From positions 1-5,689 of the IMG/VR virus record IMGVR_UViG_2778260996_000001: a stretch of DNA of 5,689 bases, one strand, 5' to 3'. The stretch's first letter is position 1, and every line of letters begins with the position of its first letter. The translations under genes were made by a program, and so were the position numbers. Positions 1 to 5,689 of the stretch are shown piece after piece. The notes under the pieces were generated by a model, which saw nothing but the letters and a program-made list of their open reading frames with translations, was not told the DNA's origin and searched no databases. The stretch comes from a virus (taxonomy: Duplodnaviria > Heunggongvirae > Uroviricota > Caudoviricetes).

Positions 1-501
1 AAAACCTGGTCCCTGACGCATCCGGTGGATGACGCAATTACCCTGCTGACACAGGGCGGCAGACTGACCTGTAAGTTCCGCCTGTCAGGCGCACTGACCA
101 ACAATCAGTTCGGGCTGGGGATTTATCTGTATACGGATGCTCCCGTTCCTGATGGTGTGGCGATGACGGGTACCGGTAATCCGTTCCTGATGTCGTACTT
201 CACTCAGACCACTGACGGCAGAGTGAATCTGATGCATCACAGGAAAGCCGGAAACACGAAGCTGGGGGAGTTCGGCGATTACGGTAACGACTGGCAGACG
301 CTGGAGCTGGTGTTCACCGCCGGCAGTGCCACGGTTACTCCGAAACTGAATGGAGTGGCTGGCCCGGCATTCCAGGTTATAAAAGACAGTCTGACACTGG
401 GACTGAATGCGCTGACGCTGACGGATGTTACAAAAAATGCAGCGTATGGCGTTGAGATAGAAAGTCTGGTGCTGGAGATAAATGCACCGGCATCATCATA
501 A
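1..501 (+). CDS. hypothetical protein, C-terminal portion (gene starts upstream of window); beta-rich, possibly lectin/carbohydrate-binding-like
   Basis: Reading frame 1 is open from nt 1 (KTWSLTHPV...) to the TAA at 499-501, so the GTG at 25 is probably internal. Gly/Thr/Val-rich composition suggests a beta-sandwich; no motif I can assign to a family. It sits immediately upstream of the lysis cassette, the slot where lambdoid prophages carry morons. Confidence 0.55.
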
Positions 502-586
502 AAAGTGAGCCAGTCAAATGGAAGGTATCGTTAAACTCACCGGTAGTGTCAGTGGGTCGTCTGAGACGCCTGCATGAGTTATCAGA

Positions 587-615
587 GCCATCAGTACTTA
601 ACTGGTGGCTTTTTT
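587..615 (+). terminator. intrinsic-terminator-like hairpin upstream of the holin gene (candidate late-operon tR'-type terminator)
   Basis: GCCATCAG (587-594) / 7-nt loop / CTGGTGGC (602-609) forms an 8-bp stem with one G-U pair, followed directly by TTTTTT (610-615). It lies 35 nt upstream of the holin ATG. Confidence 0.45.
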
Positions 616-650
616 ATTGTTGTCAGCTTCCGGATAACGGGAGACGGGGT

Positions 651-866
651 ATGTACCAGATGGAAAAAATCACAACAGGTGTGTCATACACCACGTCAGC
701 GGTGGGGACGGGATACTGGTTACTGCAGCTGCTGGACAAAGTCTCTCCGTCCCAGTGGGTGGCAATCGGTGTGCTGGGGAGTCTGCTGTTTGGCCTGCTG
801 ACGTATCTGACAAACCTTTATTTCAAGATTAAAGAAGATAAGCGCAAGGCTGCGAGAGGTGAATAA
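651..866 (+). CDS. S: class II holin / pinholin, phage 21 S21-like, with dual-start motif
   Basis: ATG at 651 preceded by GGGAGA (639-644) at 6-nt spacing. The 71-aa product [25 protein letters not shown]...[36 protein letters not shown] has two TMDs and a charged C-terminus, and closely resembles S21 / E. coli essD as I recall them. Met1 and Met4 give the antiholin/holin dual start. The GTG-extended ORF from 546 is rejected because it spans the terminator hairpin. Confidence 0.9.
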
Positions 867-1363
867 TGCCTCCATCATTACGAAAAGCCGTTGCTGCTGC
901 TATTGGTGGTGGGGCTGTTGCCATAGCGTCTGTGCTCATCACTGGTCCGAGTGGTGACGATGGCCTGGAAGGTGTCAGCTACATACCATACGAAGATATC
1001 GTTGGCGTATGGACTGTATGTCATGGACACACCGGAAAAGACATCATGCCCGGTAAAACGTATACCGAAGCAGAATGCAAAGCCCTCCTGAATAAAGACC
1101 TTGCCACGGTCGCCAGACAAATTAACCCGTACATCAAAATCGATATACCGGAAACAACGCGCGGCGCTCTTTACTCGTTCGTTTACAACGTGGGCGCTGG
1201 CAATTTCAGAACATCGACGCTTCTTCGCAAAATAAACCAGGGCGATATCAAAGGCGCATGTGATCAGCTACGGCGCTGGACATACGCTGGCGGTAAGCAA
1301 TGGAAAGGGCTGATGACTCGCCGTGAGATTGAGCGTGAAGTCTGTTTGTGGGGGCAACAATGA
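866..1363 (+). CDS. R: SAR endolysin (phage lysozyme, T4-lysozyme-like muramidase), R21-like
   Basis: ATG overlaps the holin stop (TAATG at 864-868). The N-terminus [27 protein letters not shown] is a Gly/Ala-rich signal-anchor-release domain, followed by a lysozyme core ([23 protein letters not shown] ... [21 protein letters not shown]). Near-identical to phage 21 R as recalled. Confidence 0.93.
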
Positions 1364-1797
1364 GCAGAGTAACCGCGATTATCTACGTTCTGGTCATCTG
1401 CCTCATCGTCTGCCTTTCATGGGCTGTTAATCATTACCGTGATAACGCCATCGCCTACAAAGAGCAGCGCGATAAAGCCACATCCATCATCGCTGATATG
1501 CAGAAGCGGCAACGTGATGTAGCAGAACTTGACGCCAGATACACAAAGGAGCTTGCTGATGCTAATGCGACTATCGAAAGTCTCCGTGCTGATGTTTCTG
1601 CTGGGCGTAAGCGCCTGCAAGTCTCCGCCACCTGTGCAAAGTCAACGACCGGAGCCAGCAGCATGGGCGATGGAGAAAGCCCAGGACTTACAGCAGATGC
1701 TGAACTCAATTATTACCGTCTCCGAGGTGGAATCGACAAGATAACCGCGCAGGTTAACTACCTGCAGGAATACATCAGGACGCAGTGCTTAAAATAA
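1360..1797 (+). CDS. Rz: Rz i-spanin (inner-membrane spanin subunit)
   Basis: ATGA overlap with the endolysin stop (1360-1363), GGGG at 1351-1354 as RBS. The product [39 protein letters not shown]... has an N-terminal TMD plus coiled-coil periplasmic region and strongly resembles lambda Rz from memory. The GTG at 1348 in the ORF track is a less likely start. Confidence 0.88.
1559..1744 (+). CDS. Rz1: Rz1 o-spanin (outer-membrane lipoprotein spanin), embedded in Rz in the +1 frame
   Basis: ATG at 1559 preceded by AAGGAG (1546-1551). The product [20 protein letters not shown]|[16 protein letters not shown]... has a signal peptide with lipobox-like VSAC followed by a proline-rich mature segment, the classic Rz1 architecture, and lies wholly inside Rz. 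Confidence 0.8.
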
Positions 1798-1837
1798 TTT
1801 TAATTTCACTGAAATTTAACAAGTGACTTTCAGGAAA

Positions 1838-1864
1838 ATGCCTCGCAGATGCGGGGCATTTTTG
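1838..1864 (+). terminator. rho-independent terminator downstream of Rz/Rz1 (possibly bidirectional)
   Basis: ATGCCTCGC (1838-1846) / AGAT loop / GCGGGGCAT (1851-1859) forms a 9-bp GC-rich stem with one G-U pair, followed by TTTT(G) and preceded by AAAA. Confidence 0.7.
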
Positions 1865-2015
1865 TACCGGTATTTCACCGCGCACCGCAGCGCACAATAA
1901 ACACCGAACCTGACCCTTTGGAATGGGCCTTTGAGGATACCAGTTAGTGCTGGCGAGCCTCGGTGGGCTGGTTTCCTGTGCGGCAAAGGTTCATTTCAAA
2001 GAAGCAGGCAACGCC

Positions 2016-2564
2016 ATGAATGAATTAATTGCGAATCATGACTTCGACTTTCGCCAGTTAGTTACCGCAGCAGAAGGTCAACCGGTAACTGACACCTTCC
2101 AGATTGCCAGGGCATTTGGTAAACGCCATCAGCATGTGATTAGGGCTATTAAATGTTTGAGATGTTCTGAGGAATTCTCGACAACCCATTTTTGGGCCGT
2201 CGAGAAAATCAATGGCTTAGGTATTTTTGACAAGAAACAGATTTACTACCGCATGGACTTTAGTGGCTTCGTTATGCTGGTTATGGGATTTAACGGGGCA
2301 AAAGCCGATGCTGTTAAAGAAGCCTATATCAATGCGTTTAACTGGATGTCAGCAGAACTCCGTAAGTACAGCGAAAGTTATGAAGCAGAACGTAACGCCG
2401 TAATGCTGGAGTACATGAAAGAGAAGGATGTCGCCAGCATGTCAGGCCGTCTGCTCAATCGCTGGGGGAGAACGAAAAAACCTCAATTGCTTGCAAAGCT
2501 GGAACGTCTGGAGAGACAGGGACAGTTTTTATTACCGGGATTCGATAAAGGTATTCAAGCCTGA
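2016..2564 (+). CDS. rha: Rha-family phage regulatory protein (antirepressor-like, Phage_pRha domain)
   Basis: The translation contains the Rha signature ...VTDTFQIARAFGKRHQHVIRAIKCL... and ...FSGFVMLVMGFNGAKADAVKEAYINAF.... ATG at 2016 (MNELIANHDFDF...) is chosen over the upstream GTG at 1947; both are possible starts. The position after the lysis genes matches where rha sits in P22-like genomes. Confidence 0.82.
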   Translation: MNELIANHDFDFRQLVTAAEGQPVTDTFQIARAFGKRHQHVIRAIKCLRCSEEFSTTHFWAVEKINGLGIFDKKQIYYRMDFSGFVMLVMGFNGAKADAVKEAYINAFNWMSAELRKYSESYEAERNAVMLEYMKEKDVASMSGRLLNRWGRTKKPQLLAKLERLERQGQFLLPGFDKGIQA

Positions 2565-2862
2565 CACATTATGCGCTGTATCGTCGCCGTATTCCCGCAT
2601 TAACCATGACCGTAGCCCGACAGGGAGACTCCTCTGCGCGAGTGTGCGGGGATAATCAAAAACGATACACACCGGGGTTTACCGCGTTAACGGAGCGCGG
2701 CGTTGTCCCCTCATGGTCGCTGGTTCGGTGCGATGGTGGAAGAAACCGGACGATGTGTTACCTCGCAAGACCTGTTATGTCATGTGTCTGATTTGTGATT
2801 TAAGTCGGATAATTGTCGTTGCCATTAAGCAGAGGATTGATGGCCGACAGGGTGGCATTGTT

Positions 2863-2879
2863 AGAATAAGACTTATTCT
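2863..2879. promoter_or_regulatory. perfect 8-bp inverted repeat with 1-bp spacer (candidate operator) in the promoter region of the TonB-C lipoprotein gene
   Basis: AGAATAAG-A-CTTATTCT at 2863-2879, about 20 nt upstream of the lipoprotein start. It overlaps a possible -10 (TAGAAT 2862-2867); a weak -35 candidate TTGATG lies at 2837-2842 with a long 19-nt spacer. Confidence 0.35.
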
Positions 2880-2899
2880 TATCTGTGCCGGGAATGAAA

Positions 2900-3226
2900 A
2901 TGAAAAGAAATCTTCCGTTAATTATTTTGTTGTCTTCTCTGGTTATGGGCTGTACGCAACATAAAACAGATATGCCCCGACAGTTGGTTAAGGCATTACC
3001 ACAATATCCGGCCTATGCAGCGGCAAATTATATAAAGGGACGGGTTGATGTGAAGTTTGATATTGGTGCTGATGGTACTGTCACCCGAATTGAGTTTATC
3101 CGTTCAGAGCCGCACCATCTGTTTGATGAGCAGGTTGTAAAGGCGATGGCAAAATGGCGATTTGAGAAGGACAGGCCGCGTAAAGGCGTGAAGAAAACGT
3201 TTATCTTTAGTCCTTCTGCACCCTGA
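2900..3226 (+). CDS. small secreted (probable lipo)protein consisting of a free-standing TonB C-terminal domain
   Basis: ATG at 2900 with GGGA (2890-2893) at 6-nt spacing; ATG 2894 and GTG 2885 are alternatives. Signal peptide MKRNLPLIILLSSLVMG|C with lipobox-like VMGC. The mature part LPQYPAYAAANYIKGRVDVKFDIGADGTVTRIEFIRSEPHHLFDEQVVKAMAKWRFE matches the TonB_C signature (compare E. coli TonB [55 protein letters not shown], from memory). No proline-rich linker or N-terminal ExbBD-coupling TMD is present. Confidence 0.8.
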   Translation: MKRNLPLIILLSSLVMGCTQHKTDMPRQLVKALPQYPAYAAANYIKGRVDVKFDIGADGTVTRIEFIRSEPHHLFDEQVVKAMAKWRFEKDRPRKGVKKTFIFSPSAP

Positions 3227-3357
3227 TTATTTCATCAGAAATTAATTATCACTCTGTTGTTATTCTGTACATTCCGGCTGGGTAAGTCTTGTTCCGCCGG
3301 GTATGAAGATGAAATATTGTTGGAGGACAGTGGGTACCTGCTCCTGTAACCGAACGT

Positions 3358-3558
3358 TCATTTCTCGTTATTTGTCATGCTGGCCGGACGCAGATGCGTT
3401 GCATCTGTTGCCAGCCTTCTCCTGCAGGCTTCAATAACCCACGCTGAAAAGTTACCGGAACCTTTATGTTCAAGGGCGATATTGATCTGTTCAATCATGT
3501 GATTGGGGAAACGGATATTGCGGATTGTGGTTCTGCGGGTCCGGTTTTTCGATGACAT
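3358..3558 (-). CDS. small basic ribbon-helix-helix-like DNA-binding protein (possibly YlcI/YnfO-like prophage protein family; family assignment from memory only)
   Basis: Minus-strand ATG (complement of 3556-3558) preceded by AGAGGA at 6-nt spacing. The 66-aa product has an Arg-rich N-terminus and a predicted beta-strand TIRNIRFP followed by two helices (MIEQINIALEHKG / NFSAWVIEACRRRL), an Arc/MetJ/CopG-like layout. No competing + strand ORF exists in 3227-3599. Confidence 0.65.
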   Translation of the reverse strand: MSSKNRTRRTTIRNIRFPNHMIEQINIALEHKGSGNFSAWVIEACRRRLATDATHLRPASMTNNEK

Positions 3559-3599
3559 TTTCTTTCCTCTGGTGACAAGCTATATGGAGAGGATTTTAC

Positions 3600-3965
3600 A
3601 TGGCTGTGCTTCGTACGTTACCGGGCAGAATCAAAACTCTGAACACCCGGCGGGTGAATGTCCTGAAGGGTGAACAGCGTCGGGTCAGTGGTAGTGCCCG
3701 GGTTTCCCTCAAGCGTCGTATCTGGCTGAGGGATGCCGGACAGTGCTGTCTCTGTGGGCGTGTGGTTGACCTTTGTGACAGTGAACTTGAGCACCGCATT
3801 GCACTTCAGTTCGGTGGTGGTAATGAGGAGACGAATCTCTGGACGCTCTGTACCGAATGCCATCGACAAAAGTCTGCTCGTGAAGCGGCGAGTGGTATGC
3901 CAGACCCGACGCTGCCGGAGGTGTCCGGAGGTAGTGGCAGAGCGGACGACATCATCGGACTGTAA
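3600..3965 (+). CDS. phage-associated HNH endonuclease (terminase-associated type)
   Basis: ATG at 3600 preceded by GGAGAGGA (3586-3593). The product carries an HNH/zinc-finger motif: CCLCG...DSELEHRIALQFGG...NLWTLCTECHRQK. Its position immediately upstream of the terminase small and large subunit genes is typical of HK97-like cos packaging modules. Confidence 0.9.
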   Translation: MAVLRTLPGRIKTLNTRRVNVLKGEQRRVSGSARVSLKRRIWLRDAGQCCLCGRVVDLCDSELEHRIALQFGGGNEETNLWTLCTECHRQKSAREAASGMPDPTLPEVSGGSGRADDIIGL

Positions 3966-4025
3966 CCCGACCCGGGGGGGGTATCATCCGGCGTAAAAAA
4001 AGATCGCTTTGGACACCGCCCCCCC
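3966..4025. other. candidate cos cleavage region: G8 run and C7 run flanking a 34-bp AT-rich segment
   Basis: GGGGGGGG at 3974-3981 and CCCCCCC at 4019-4025, non-coding, between the HNH stop and the GTTAAC repeat cluster. The assignment as cosN-like is inference from position only. Confidence 0.3.
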
Positions 4026-4057
4026 TCTCACGCAGAGAAAAAATTCCCGTTTCAGGG

Positions 4058-4185
4058 CAGTTAACATGTTAACTGGCTGTCCGGGCATTTTTGCGGTTTT
4101 TATCTTTATTATTCAGTTTGTTGTGCGGAAAAAATGTTAACTGGCTTTTTCAGCAAATGTTAACCAGGCAGCAGTTAACATTTGC
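4058..4185. repeat. cluster of five GTTAAC-containing repeats (18-bp perfect palindrome, 13-bp direct repeat, 12-bp inverted repeat): candidate terminase small-subunit binding sites (cosB/R-site-like)
   Basis: CAGTTAACATGTTAACTG (4058-4075) is a perfect palindrome. ATGTTAACTGGCT occurs at 4066-4078 and 4134-4146. GCAAATGTTAAC (4153-4164) and GTTAACATTTGC (4174-4185) are inverted arms with a 9-bp spacer. T-tract-rich bendable DNA lies between them (4085-4135). All of this sits directly upstream of the terS start. Confidence 0.5.
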
Positions 4186-4255
4186 GGCATGAGACGCCGG
4201 GAAAAATGGGCTGAACCATACCCGGCTGAGTGCGTTCTGGACCCGGGAGGAGGCT

Positions 4256-4819
4256 GTGCTGACAACGCAAAAACGAAAATTTGCGCTGGCGCTCATGTCC
4301 GGGAAAAACAAAACAGCGTCAGCCATTGCCGCTGGTTATTCGGCGAAGACCGCCAGGGTTAAAGGCTCGCAGCTGGCAAAAGATCCGGAGGTGCTTGCGT
4401 TTATAGCCCGTAAACAATGCGAGACGGTGGAGGTGGATGAGGTTCCTGTTTACCGGCAGAAAAAATCAGAGCAGGAGGATAAACCCCGTCGCCGTGAGGC
4501 GGCTGCAATACCACAGCCGGACGAAAACAATCCGGAGATGCCTCCGCCCGCGGTGATATCTCATGGTATTGAATATATGGAGGATGGTCTTCCCGATCCG
4601 GTGAAAGCGATGGGGCGTCTTCTGGTGGAGAACATTAATACCGACCCCAGGCTGGCGCTGGATGCGGCTTATAAGCTGGCGCAGTTCACGCACCACAAAA
4701 AAGGGGATGCCGGTAAAAAATCGGCAAAAGGTGACGCCGCGAAAAAAGCGGCTAACCGTTTTGCGGTGCCACCACCACCCCGCCTGGTGGTGAATAATGA
4801 TAATGAGGGCAACGGATGA
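4256..4819 (+). CDS. terS: terminase small subunit (phage Terminase_2/P27-type HTH small subunit)
   Basis: GTG at 4256 directly after GGGAGGAGG (4245-4253). The N-terminus KRKFALALMSGKNKTASAIAAGYSAKTARVKGSQLAKDPEVLAFI matches the small-terminase HTH signature (AGYS.K.A ... L.K.P.V..I). ATGA overlap with the downstream large-subunit gene (4816-4819). Confidence 0.85.
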   Translation: MLTTQKRKFALALMSGKNKTASAIAAGYSAKTARVKGSQLAKDPEVLAFIARKQCETVEVDEVPVYRQKKSEQEDKPRRREAAAIPQPDENNPEMPPPAVISHGIEYMEDGLPDPVKAMGRLLVENINTDPRLALDAAYKLAQFTHHKKGDAGKKSAKGDAAKKAANRFAVPPPPRLVVNNDNEGNG

Positions 4820-5616
4820 TACCTGTGTGGAGCACGGCCTGCCCGGACTGGGCAGAGCGCCTGAAAAAGGGGCTGTCGATTATTCCGGCTCCGATTTATC
4901 CGGAGCAGGCCGCACATGCCCTGGCGATTTTTAAACAACTGCGGATTGTGGATGCACCTGGTAGCCCTACGTTCGGGGAGTCCTGTGCACCGTGGGTGTT
5001 TGACCTGGTGGCGGCCCTGTTTGGCTCCTACGATGCGCAGACCGGTGTACGCCATATCAAGGAAGTTTTTATCCTTATCCCCAAGAAAAACTCGAAGTCC
5101 ACGCTGGCCGCGGGGATCATGATGACTGCACTGTTACTGAACTGGCGGCAGGCGGCGGGTTACACGATTCTGGCCCCGACTGTGGAGGTGGCGGCCAACG
5201 CCTTCAACCCTGCCCGGGATATGGTACGACGTGACGATGATCTGGATGACCTCTGCCAGGTACAGACCCATATCCGGACCATCACCCACCGGGTGACGGA
5301 CACCACCCTGAAGGTGGTGGCAGCCGATCCGAATACGGTGTCCGGTATCAAGTCCGTGGGTACGCTGATTGATGAGTTGTGGCTGTTTGGCAAGCAGTGC
5401 AAGGCGGAGGACATGTTACGTGAAGCCATAGGCGGCCTTGCCTCCCGCCCGGAAGGGTTTGTGGTGTATACGACCACCCAGTCGAATGAACCGCCCGCCG
5501 GGGTGTTCAGACAGAAACTGCAGTACGCCCGGGATGTGCGCGACGGCAAAATTCATGATCCGCACTTTCTGCCGGTGATATTTGAACACCCTCCTGAAAT
5601 GGTGGAAAGCGGGTAA
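4816..5616 (+). CDS. terL: terminase large subunit, N-terminal ATPase domain only; ORF ends prematurely (probably disrupted or pseudogenised)
   Basis: Translationally coupled to terS. Walker A-like P-loop ILIPKKNSKST and Walker B-like VGTLIDELWLFG (compare HK97 TerL GRKNGKS / IIDELHAH, from memory). The ORF stops at 5614-5616 after 266 aa and all three forward frames hit stops by 5665, whereas large terminases are typically over 400 aa with a C-terminal nuclease domain. Confidence 0.8.
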   Translation: MIPVWSTACPDWAERLKKGLSIIPAPIYPEQAAHALAIFKQLRIVDAPGSPTFGESCAPWVFDLVAALFGSYDAQTGVRHIKEVFILIPKKNSKSTLAAGIMMTALLLNWRQAAGYTILAPTVEVAANAFNPARDMVRRDDDLDDLCQVQTHIRTITHRVTDTTLKVVAADPNTVSGIKSVGTLIDELWLFGKQCKAEDMLREAIGGLASRPEGFVVYTTTQSNEPPAGVFRQKLQYARDVRDGKIHDPHFLPVIFEHPPEMVESG

Positions 5617-5689
5617 GCGTCGTCTCAGCACCGTCTGGCAGATCCTGAAATTCCTGAGAGAATAGTGGACACCAAATATGGTGGACGCT

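Follow-up and report, generated by a model that had tools for sequence, protein, structure and literature searches.

A 3′ cohesive-end site and a candidate small-terminase recognition array in the packaging module of an Stx-type Escherichia coli prophage

The stretch analysed here, referred to as the window (5,689 nt; positions 1–5,689 of IMG/VR record IMGVR_UViG_2778260996_000001), is 5.7 kb of the late region of an Escherichia coli lambdoid prophage of the Shiga toxin (Stx) 1/Stx2c-phage type. It is 92–98% identical to BP-4795, phage 1717, phage 2851, YYZ-2008 and many Stx1a/Stx2c prophages, and one of its relatives, phi330, is classed in the genus Pankowvirus. Our subject is the 290-bp gap (3966–4255) between the stop codon of an HNH endonuclease gene and the GTG start codon of terS, the gene for the small terminase (TerS). 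The HNH gene (3600–3965, plus strand; Pfam HNH PF01844, E = 5e-6) lies directly upstream of the gap and encodes the accessory nuclease of the packaging module; its homologues in related phages are annotated as HNH endonuclease or DNase. Directly downstream lie terS (4256–4819, plus strand; Pfam Terminase_2, E = 1.3e-8), whose product carries an N-terminal helix-turn-helix (HTH) domain of the SF6 G1P type, and then terL (4816–5613, plus strand; Pfam TerL_ATPase), which retains only the N-terminal 266 codons of the large terminase (TerL). A first-pass annotation had proposed that the gap is the cohesive-end (cos) region of an HNH-cos-terS-terL module, and this identification was borne out, as 3′ cohesive ends have been mapped in a phage with an identical cos region. 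The module is present in many Stx1, Stx2a and Stx2c phages, and a place covering at least 80% of window positions 3300–5689 was found in 1,122 of 5,426 complete E. coli genomes.

The nick site, cosN, was placed by homology, with the bottom-strand nick at 4016/4017 and the top-strand nick at 4026/4027. This leaves a 10-nt 3′ cohesive end, CGCCCCCCCT, at 4017–4026 on the plus strand, which includes a run of seven C residues (C7, 4019–4025). Papers describing such ends were located by a literature text search with CGCCCCCC and "cohesive". For the induced Stx1 phage Lys8385Vzw (Zhang et al. 2021), PhageTerm gave 3′ cohesive ends of sequence CGCCCCCCCT (PMC7946995). The Lys8385Vzw record, MT225100, opens CTCACGCAGAG / CTCACGCAGAGAAAAAATTCCCGTTTCAGGGCAGTTAACATGTTAAC..., has no mismatch to the window in its first 516 nt and four in 660 nt, and closes in ...GGACACCGCCCCCCCT, its final 10 bases being those of window 4017–4026. 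Since the first base of this record is window position 4027 and its last bases are the 10 that precede it, the overhang corresponds to 4017–4026 with the C7 run inside it. The cleavage site, which the first-pass annotation had held could not be read from sequence, is thus readable by homology, at the C7 run and approximately 32 nt upstream of the first GTTAAC hexamer of the gap. The ends of this identical-sequence phage fall within the interval that had been flagged, and they are cohesive and not permuted.

Two more distant phages place the cut at the homologous position. Acinetobacter phage fEg-Aba01, whose TerS N-terminus is 51% identical to that of the window, has a 10-nt 3′ end, CGCCCCCCAT, demonstrated by PhageTerm and by a heat/cool gel (PMC7354433); the end is annotated on its record directly after GGACAC, and its left genome end begins CGCACGCACAAAAAAAATTCCC. 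The record of Burkholderia phage Bcep176 carries the 10-nt sequence CGCACGTTCC at both ends, in the homologous place, followed by CTCACGCGCAGAAAATTTTCCC. By sequence correspondence, Lys8385Vzw, fEg-Aba01 and Bcep176 are three independent anchors for a cohesive end at 4017–4026, and we have very little doubt that the gap is a cos site with cosN as assigned. Close relatives have either C or G at the 4th and at the 9th position of the overhang (4020 and 4025), so that their cohesive ends are not identical. In MT225100 (locus L274 in our numbering, in which L precedes each locus number) the deposited "terminase" coding sequence (185–793) starts 45 nt upstream of the conserved MLT...QKRKFA start; a start equivalent to the window GTG at 4256 is a better fit to the TerS family alignment.

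The cut lies within a conserved core. On its left is a run of eight G residues (G8, 3974–3981) that is conserved in relatives: the cut is preceded, at a distance of 35–45 nt, by a G run in relatives of enteric, Acinetobacter and Burkholderia origin as well as in HK97, and its length ranges from G5 to G13 among near-identical relatives. The hexamer GGACAC (4011–4016) flanks the cut directly and is invariant in 43 close relatives; the majority of distant relatives have GGACACC or GGAAACC at this place. On the right, the 22-bp box CTCACGCAGAGAAAAAATTCCC (4027–4048, plus strand), which contains an A tract, occupies +1 to +22 of the left genome end. This box is common to fEg-Aba01 and Bcep176, both of which were reached by the similarity of their TerS proteins, independently of the box pattern. 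When viral contigs and species-representative genomes were scanned with the box pattern CNCACGCNNANAAAANNTTCCC, nearly all of the 120 viral contigs returned carried a G run (5–13), approximately 35 nt and GGACACC upstream; among the 120 stretches returned from species-representative genomes a G run lay upstream in 22, and nearly all of these 22 shared the upstream part. As the G run and GGACACC were absent from the search pattern, their recurrence is independent evidence, and both elements probably belong to a left arm of the cos site. The G run had previously been read as a flank of the repeats described below, but is to be seen as a conserved left-arm element instead. A pairing between the G8 run and the C7 run, 37 nt apart, in a hairpin or symmetric site was considered and rejected, since every lineage retains the G run but not every one retains the C run: Bcep176 has CGCACGTTCC as its overhang, and L077, L283 and L286 have GGCGCACCCC. 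The box is retained at two loci (L076 and L111) where the N-terminal domain of TerS is a different, non-HTH domain, which suggests that it goes with the TerL, HNH and TerS-core proteins and not with the HTH domain.

The same core turned up in other settings. In PPompW prophages of O157 strains, an insertion sequence (IS) of the IS110 family, ISEc20, lies inside the cos G run, with G7 and G5 on either side (L250, LC567822.1, 746–2204). These prophages are without the HNH and lysis genes upstream, and at L102 the same upstream flank is joined to the G run with no IS. The G run, GGAAACC, 10 nt and the box also occur in Pseudomonas, Polaromonas, Variovorax and Roseateles genomes with no Terminase_2 terS after them (L130, L143, L148, L164, L166, L199, L212, L215, L218 and L236). 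At these loci other repeats follow the box (CTTACC arrays, CAGCAAATG), and at L130 the next gene, on the opposite strand, encodes a PrtN-like activator. They could be satellites, or phages with another type of TerS.

Between the nick site and terS, the gap contains five GTTAAC hexamers, at 4060, 4068, 4136, 4159 and 4174, as the first-pass annotation had listed. The whole window has seven copies versus 1.16 expected from dinucleotide shuffles, and the five in the gap fall within a 126-bp stretch where approximately 0.026 would be expected (Poisson P(≥5) of about 9e-11). Each is the core of a copy of ATGTTAAC; numbered from the cut and signed by strand, the copies stand at −34, +40, +108, +131 and −148. 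The first two form an 18-bp perfect palindrome, CAGTTAACA/TGTTAACTG, at 4058–4075 (P1, CAGTTAACATGTTAACTG), in which the minus-strand copy at +34 and the plus-strand copy at +40 are centred on ACATGT. The copy at +108 lies in R1, AAAATGTTAACTGGCT (4131–4146, plus strand), which repeats 4063–4078 directly; the exact 13-mer ATGTTAACTGGCT occurs at 4066 and 4134, with starts 68 bp apart. The last two copies, R2 (+131, plus strand) and the inverted R3′ (+148), span 4153–4185 and form a 12-bp inverted repeat, GCAAATGTTAAC at 4153–4164 and GTTAACATTTGC at 4174–4185, with a 9-nt spacer.

P1 and R1 are separated by a T-rich spacer (4086–4130, read from sequence). The T tracts reported there are present (T5 at 4088, T5 at 4097, T3 at 4105 and T3 at 4117), while their supposed phasing is only rough, with intervals of 9, 8 and 12. 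A site for integration host factor (IHF) suggested at 4085–4135 was not recovered: no match to the consensus WATCAANNNNTTR with one mismatch or fewer occurs anywhere in 3966–4255, although a consensus scan is a weak test of binding. An Rfam search of the gap returned no RNA-element match at E ≤ 1, and no terminator-like site was found in the gap. A 24-codon hydrophobic mini open reading frame (ORF; 4066–4140, MLTGCPGIFAVFIFIIQFVVRKKC) begins at the ancestral terS ATG. As it carries a 1-nt deletion (frameshift) in L115 and the ancestral ribosome-binding site is degraded, it is probably no gene.

Loci of the long type, in which terS starts further downstream as in the window, were retrieved through TerS homologues of a Hafnia alvei prophage. 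A MAFFT alignment of the seven long-type gaps misplaces the window spacer, and we therefore counted copies of ATGT[TA][TAC]A[TC] directly from the cut, with a minus sign for minus-strand copies. The window has the pair −34/+40 and further copies at +108, +131 and −148, with motif ATGTTAAC. The Hafnia locus, L077, has the pair 34/40 and copies at 107 and 129, with motif ATGTACAT. L279 has the pair −33/+39 and copies at 83, 89, 107 and 129 (ATGTTTAT); L282 has −34/+40 and copies at −57, 107 and 131 (ATGTTAAT / ATGTTAAC); L283 and L284 have −34/+40 and copies at 108 and 130 (ATGTTTAT / ATGTTTAC); L286 has −33/+39 and copies at 107 and 129 (ATGTTTAT, with ATGTTAAT / ATGTTTAC in the pair); and L287 has −34/+40 with one other copy at +55 (ATGTTAAC). 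The inverted pair at +33/34 and +39/40 is therefore present in all seven long-type lineages, a copy at +107/108 in six of the seven (L287 is without it) and a copy at +129 to +131 likewise in six; the inverted third copy at +148 is restricted to the window type. Positions are constant to 1–2 bp while the spacers have diverged, the distance from P1 to R1 being constant to 1 bp between lineages, and within a lineage the 8-mer is changed at all copies (ATGTTAAC, ATGTTAAT, ATGTTTAT or ATGTACAT). A comparison of 43 distinct close relatives showed no variation at the 30 GTTAAC core positions, while 40 of the remaining 164 gap positions vary (Fisher p = 5e-4), a contrast that is weakly informative by itself because sequences within the window-type group are 92–98% identical. 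Further relatives with a ATGTACAT-type motif were sought in four ways: a terS-start pattern returned L077 only, a metagenome scan gave only chance matches in unrelated DNA, a box-plus-ACATGTV pattern recovered, besides L077, only a window-type sequence with a point mutation, and a phage collection yielded none.

Most enteric relatives, for example Salmonella phage FSL SP-016, are of a short type in which only 39 nt separate the cut from terS. Here the pair has the same offset, and the terS start codon is the ATG (+40) inside GT(A/T)AAC-ATG-TTAAC, in the right arm of P1. The window keeps the short-type palindrome in place, with the terS start 190 bp further downstream. In GC-rich relatives the Leu codon inside the TTAAC at the terS start is TTA, versus 0–5% TTA among Leu codons elsewhere in the genes. 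The window and L077 have CTG instead; these two are the long types in which terS no longer starts at a copy of ATGTTAAC. A preference for AT-rich 5′ codons could add to the retention of TTA at this place. The equivalent interval also carries GTTAA-type repeats in relatives from Acinetobacter and Burkholderia. In 23 of 38 short-type sequences (e.g., L139, L145 and L224) the 14-mer AATGTTTATACCCC lies inside the terS frame, approximately +245 from the cut, where it codes for NVYTP in a variable linker. The same 14-mer forms the distal repeats of L279 and L283; in short-type terS it is more conserved than its flanks and may be a recognition site within the gene.

In an AlphaFold model of the window TerS, residues 1–55 (pLDDT score 95–98) form four helices, with H2 (residues 19–25) and H3 (residues 30–41) making up the HTH. 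The top fold matches of this domain are the SF6 G1P DNA-binding domain structures 2cmp and 4zc3 (TM score 0.81–0.82 on the target, 29–30% identity). At L076 and L111, the loci whose TerS is without this HTH domain, there are no GTTAA repeats. Residues 17–21 and 30 of TerS track the motif type; with so few lineages, this tracking is inseparable from common descent. The family and fold make TerS the obvious candidate reader of the GTTAAC array, and on sequence and model grounds we lean towards binding of TerS to it. The large terminase is distantly related to HK97 gp2: a pairwise comparison gave 24% identity over 181 aa (E = 6e-6), and a phmmer search of the TerL fragment against PDB chains gave no match at E ≤ 0.01.

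Taken together, these data are best explained by a cos site of an HNH-cos-terS-terL module in a prophage of the Stx1/Stx2c type (Pankowvirus-like), with the GTTAAC cluster as a TerS array, a reading that we consider likely as a whole. Identity with the mapped phage shows that the terminase cut leaves the 10-nt 3′ overhang CGCCCCCCCT, with 4027 as the left end of the virion chromosome. The A-tract box at 4027–4048 would be the part of the site that is paired with the conserved TerL, HNH and TerS-core proteins, as its conservation suggests. The GTTAAC cluster, with P1, R1, R2 and the extra inverted copy at +148, would be a lineage-specific recognition array comparable to cosB, read by the SF6-like HTH domains of a TerS oligomer. 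Reading of the array would position TerL together with HNH on cosN, both to make the initial cut and to stop at the following cos. On the model of lambda and HK97, packaging would then proceed rightward, entering terS, terL and the head genes. The array itself probably grew by recombination among ATGTTAAC copies. Comparison across lineages supports the cosB-like role that had been suggested for the repeats, through their fixed positions in seven lineages, the concerted change of motif and the SF6-type HTH of TerS. That the repeats form a fixed-position array for small terminases with SF6-type HTH domains in 3′-cos phages, with an 8-bp motif exchanged in concert between lineages and a proximal palindrome that includes the terS start codon in the short form, seems to us about as likely as not.

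Several observations weigh against a TerS-read array. Residue 35 in H3, which is V in the window, N in Hafnia, C in L279 and S in L283, L284 and L286, was examined as the residue that sets motif specificity and rejected, as L279 (C35) shares ATGTTTAT with L283, L284 and L286 (S35). Helix 3 of the Hafnia TerS is one residue off the short-type helix, yet its motif is ATGTACAT, and phylogeny confounds any link of motif type to the sequence of TerS. Short-type phages carry P1 alone, which argues that the distal repeats are not universally needed, and one further relative, L278, has a mutated core, GTAAAC. There is also no IHF consensus to account for a juxtaposition of P1 and R1. Protein binding on 4058–4185 is itself a prediction from the sequence and the model, and the end mapping refers to an identical sequence in another phage and not to this prophage with its broken terL.

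One alternative is that the gap is the cos site but its array is read by something other than TerS, for instance by the HNH protein, by a nucleoid protein of the host or by some phage regulator. Or the array would serve mainly as an operator for both terS and the late genes, while TerS reads only the box at 4027–4048. We regard this alternative as unlikely. In HK97, TerS has one site only, a 15-bp A-tract element spanning +15 to +29 (PMC11331095), and the window box has its A tract at +12 to +17, but the window TerS belongs to a type other than HK97 gp1, and it is the GTTAA repeats that vanish where the N-terminal domain of TerS differs while the box stays, so that the repeats, and not the box, go with the HTH. 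Helix 3 of TerS is near-invariant across lineages with different motifs, P1 of the short types overlaps the start codon of terS, where regulatory sites typically lie, and on the minus strand the motifs give a weak promoter-like match. No candidate regulator was identified, however, and fixed distances from the cut are expected of a packaging element and not of an operator.

An account in which the extra GTTAAC copies are a neutral relic appears improbable. Here the 5′ end of terS (ATGTTAAC...) would have been duplicated and left behind when the start moved approximately 190 bp downstream, and function would be confined to cosN and the box, possibly with P1. In its favour, the ATG at 4066 is homologous to the short-type terS start, the motif is followed by TGTCCGGG at 4078 and again within terS, at 4296, and short types package with P1 alone. 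A relic would nevertheless have to keep the same offsets (+107/108 and +129–131) in six of seven long-type lineages despite diverged spacers and different motifs, to change all of its copies in concert within a lineage, and to hold its GTTAAC cores invariant among the 43 relatives. That the gap is not a packaging start at all, with headful (pac) packaging or a cut elsewhere, is suggested by the Terminase_2 family, whose best-known small terminases are those of the pac phages SPP1 and SF6. This is highly improbable, as it is already contradicted by the cohesive 3′ ends that PhageTerm located at exactly this sequence in Lys8385Vzw and by the homologous ends mapped in fEg-Aba01.

The prophage itself carries a damaged packaging module. 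Homology to intact terL genes ends at 5613, after codon 266, and 5614–5689 (plus strand) is the left end of an inserted IS66-family (ISEc22-like) element. A 78-nt query for this element end occurs in up to 14 copies per genome, also on plasmids, and in NZ_CP028126 the sequence lies directly upstream of IS66 tnpA, tnpB and an ISEc22-family transposase gene. Since the element breaks terL, this prophage copy is unable to package itself in cis, and its intact cos could serve only in trans. At the other end of the window, a DUF6645 ORF comes first and is followed by holin, lysozyme and Rz ORFs, whose names were assigned from their translations. The lysis genes and HNH are separated by three minus-strand ORFs: a Rha/ORF11CD3 regulator-like ORF (1947–2564), a TonB_C small lipoprotein (2885–3226) and a DUF3950 (YlcI/YnfO) ORF (3358–3558). 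These are cargo or accessory genes.

The assignment of a cos site is correct but ordinary, since the site was mapped in this phage lineage before; only the repeat layout is a new detail. The cut can be placed by sequence alone, from a G run, approximately 35 nt, GGACAC, 10 nt and CNCACGC..AGAAAAWWTTCCC, and this signature helps to orient phage genomes and to predict which defective prophages, this one among them, or satellites could be packaged in trans by co-resident phages. An array with swapped motifs and conserved positions is a modest new lead for packaging specialists and leaves the kind of system unchanged. If the array is read by TerS, its lineages would be a natural specificity series on how a ring-shaped TerS reads DNA, by wrapping or threading, and recombination between repeat copies would explain switching between short and long forms of cos.

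The cos site of lambda consists of cosQ, cosN and cosB, with the elements R3-I1-R2-R1 and an IHF site, a 12-nt 5′ overhang and the winged-helix TerS gpNu1, without an HNH protein. The window resembles lambda in logic only, with an upstream element, a nick site and a downstream repeat array in two orientations beside the small-terminase gene, and with repeat sequences that, in both cases, vary between related phages; it differs in its Terminase_2 TerS, in its 10-nt 3′ overhang and in that no IHF consensus was found. With SPP1 and SF6 G1P it shares the N-terminal HTH fold and the Pfam Terminase_2 assignment, whereas those phages package by the headful mechanism from pac and the window site has cohesive, site-specific ends.

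The description of the site as HK97-like holds for gene order, end type and left arm, and fails for TerS and its site. Both have a 10-nt 3′ overhang, with the HNH gene (gp74 in HK97) last before cos and terS (gp1) and terL (gp2) first after it (PMC9410871, PMC11331095). Both also have a G run approximately 42–45 nt from the cut (in HK97, G9 at 42 nt before the right end), GAC..CGCC at the cut and an A/T tract no more than 30 bp from the left end. In contrast, HK97 gp1 has no Pfam match and is unrelated to the window Terminase_2 TerS, the two HNH proteins are without significant pairwise similarity to each other, and the single HK97 element bound by TerS, for which the structure is solved (PMC11331095), stands against a repeat array in the window. 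With fEg-Aba01 and Bcep176 the window shares a homologous TerS N-terminus, a G run, GGACAC, a 10-nt 3′ end in the same place (CGCCCCCCAT or CGCACGTTCC in these phages), the 22-bp box and GTTAA-type repeats ahead of terS. They differ in having direct AAGTTAAAG copies (three to five) or one GTTAA-N5-TTAAC pair over the terS start, and gaps of 39–86 nt without the P1/R1/R2 layout. The closest is Lys8385Vzw, whose paper gives the 10-nt end only, with no cosB-type analysis (PMC7946995). Its record has G7 where the window, a prophage copy with an IS66-broken terL, has G8; it is otherwise the same site, identical from the cut rightward over 516 nt, with the same end, the same gene order and the same five GTTAAC copies.

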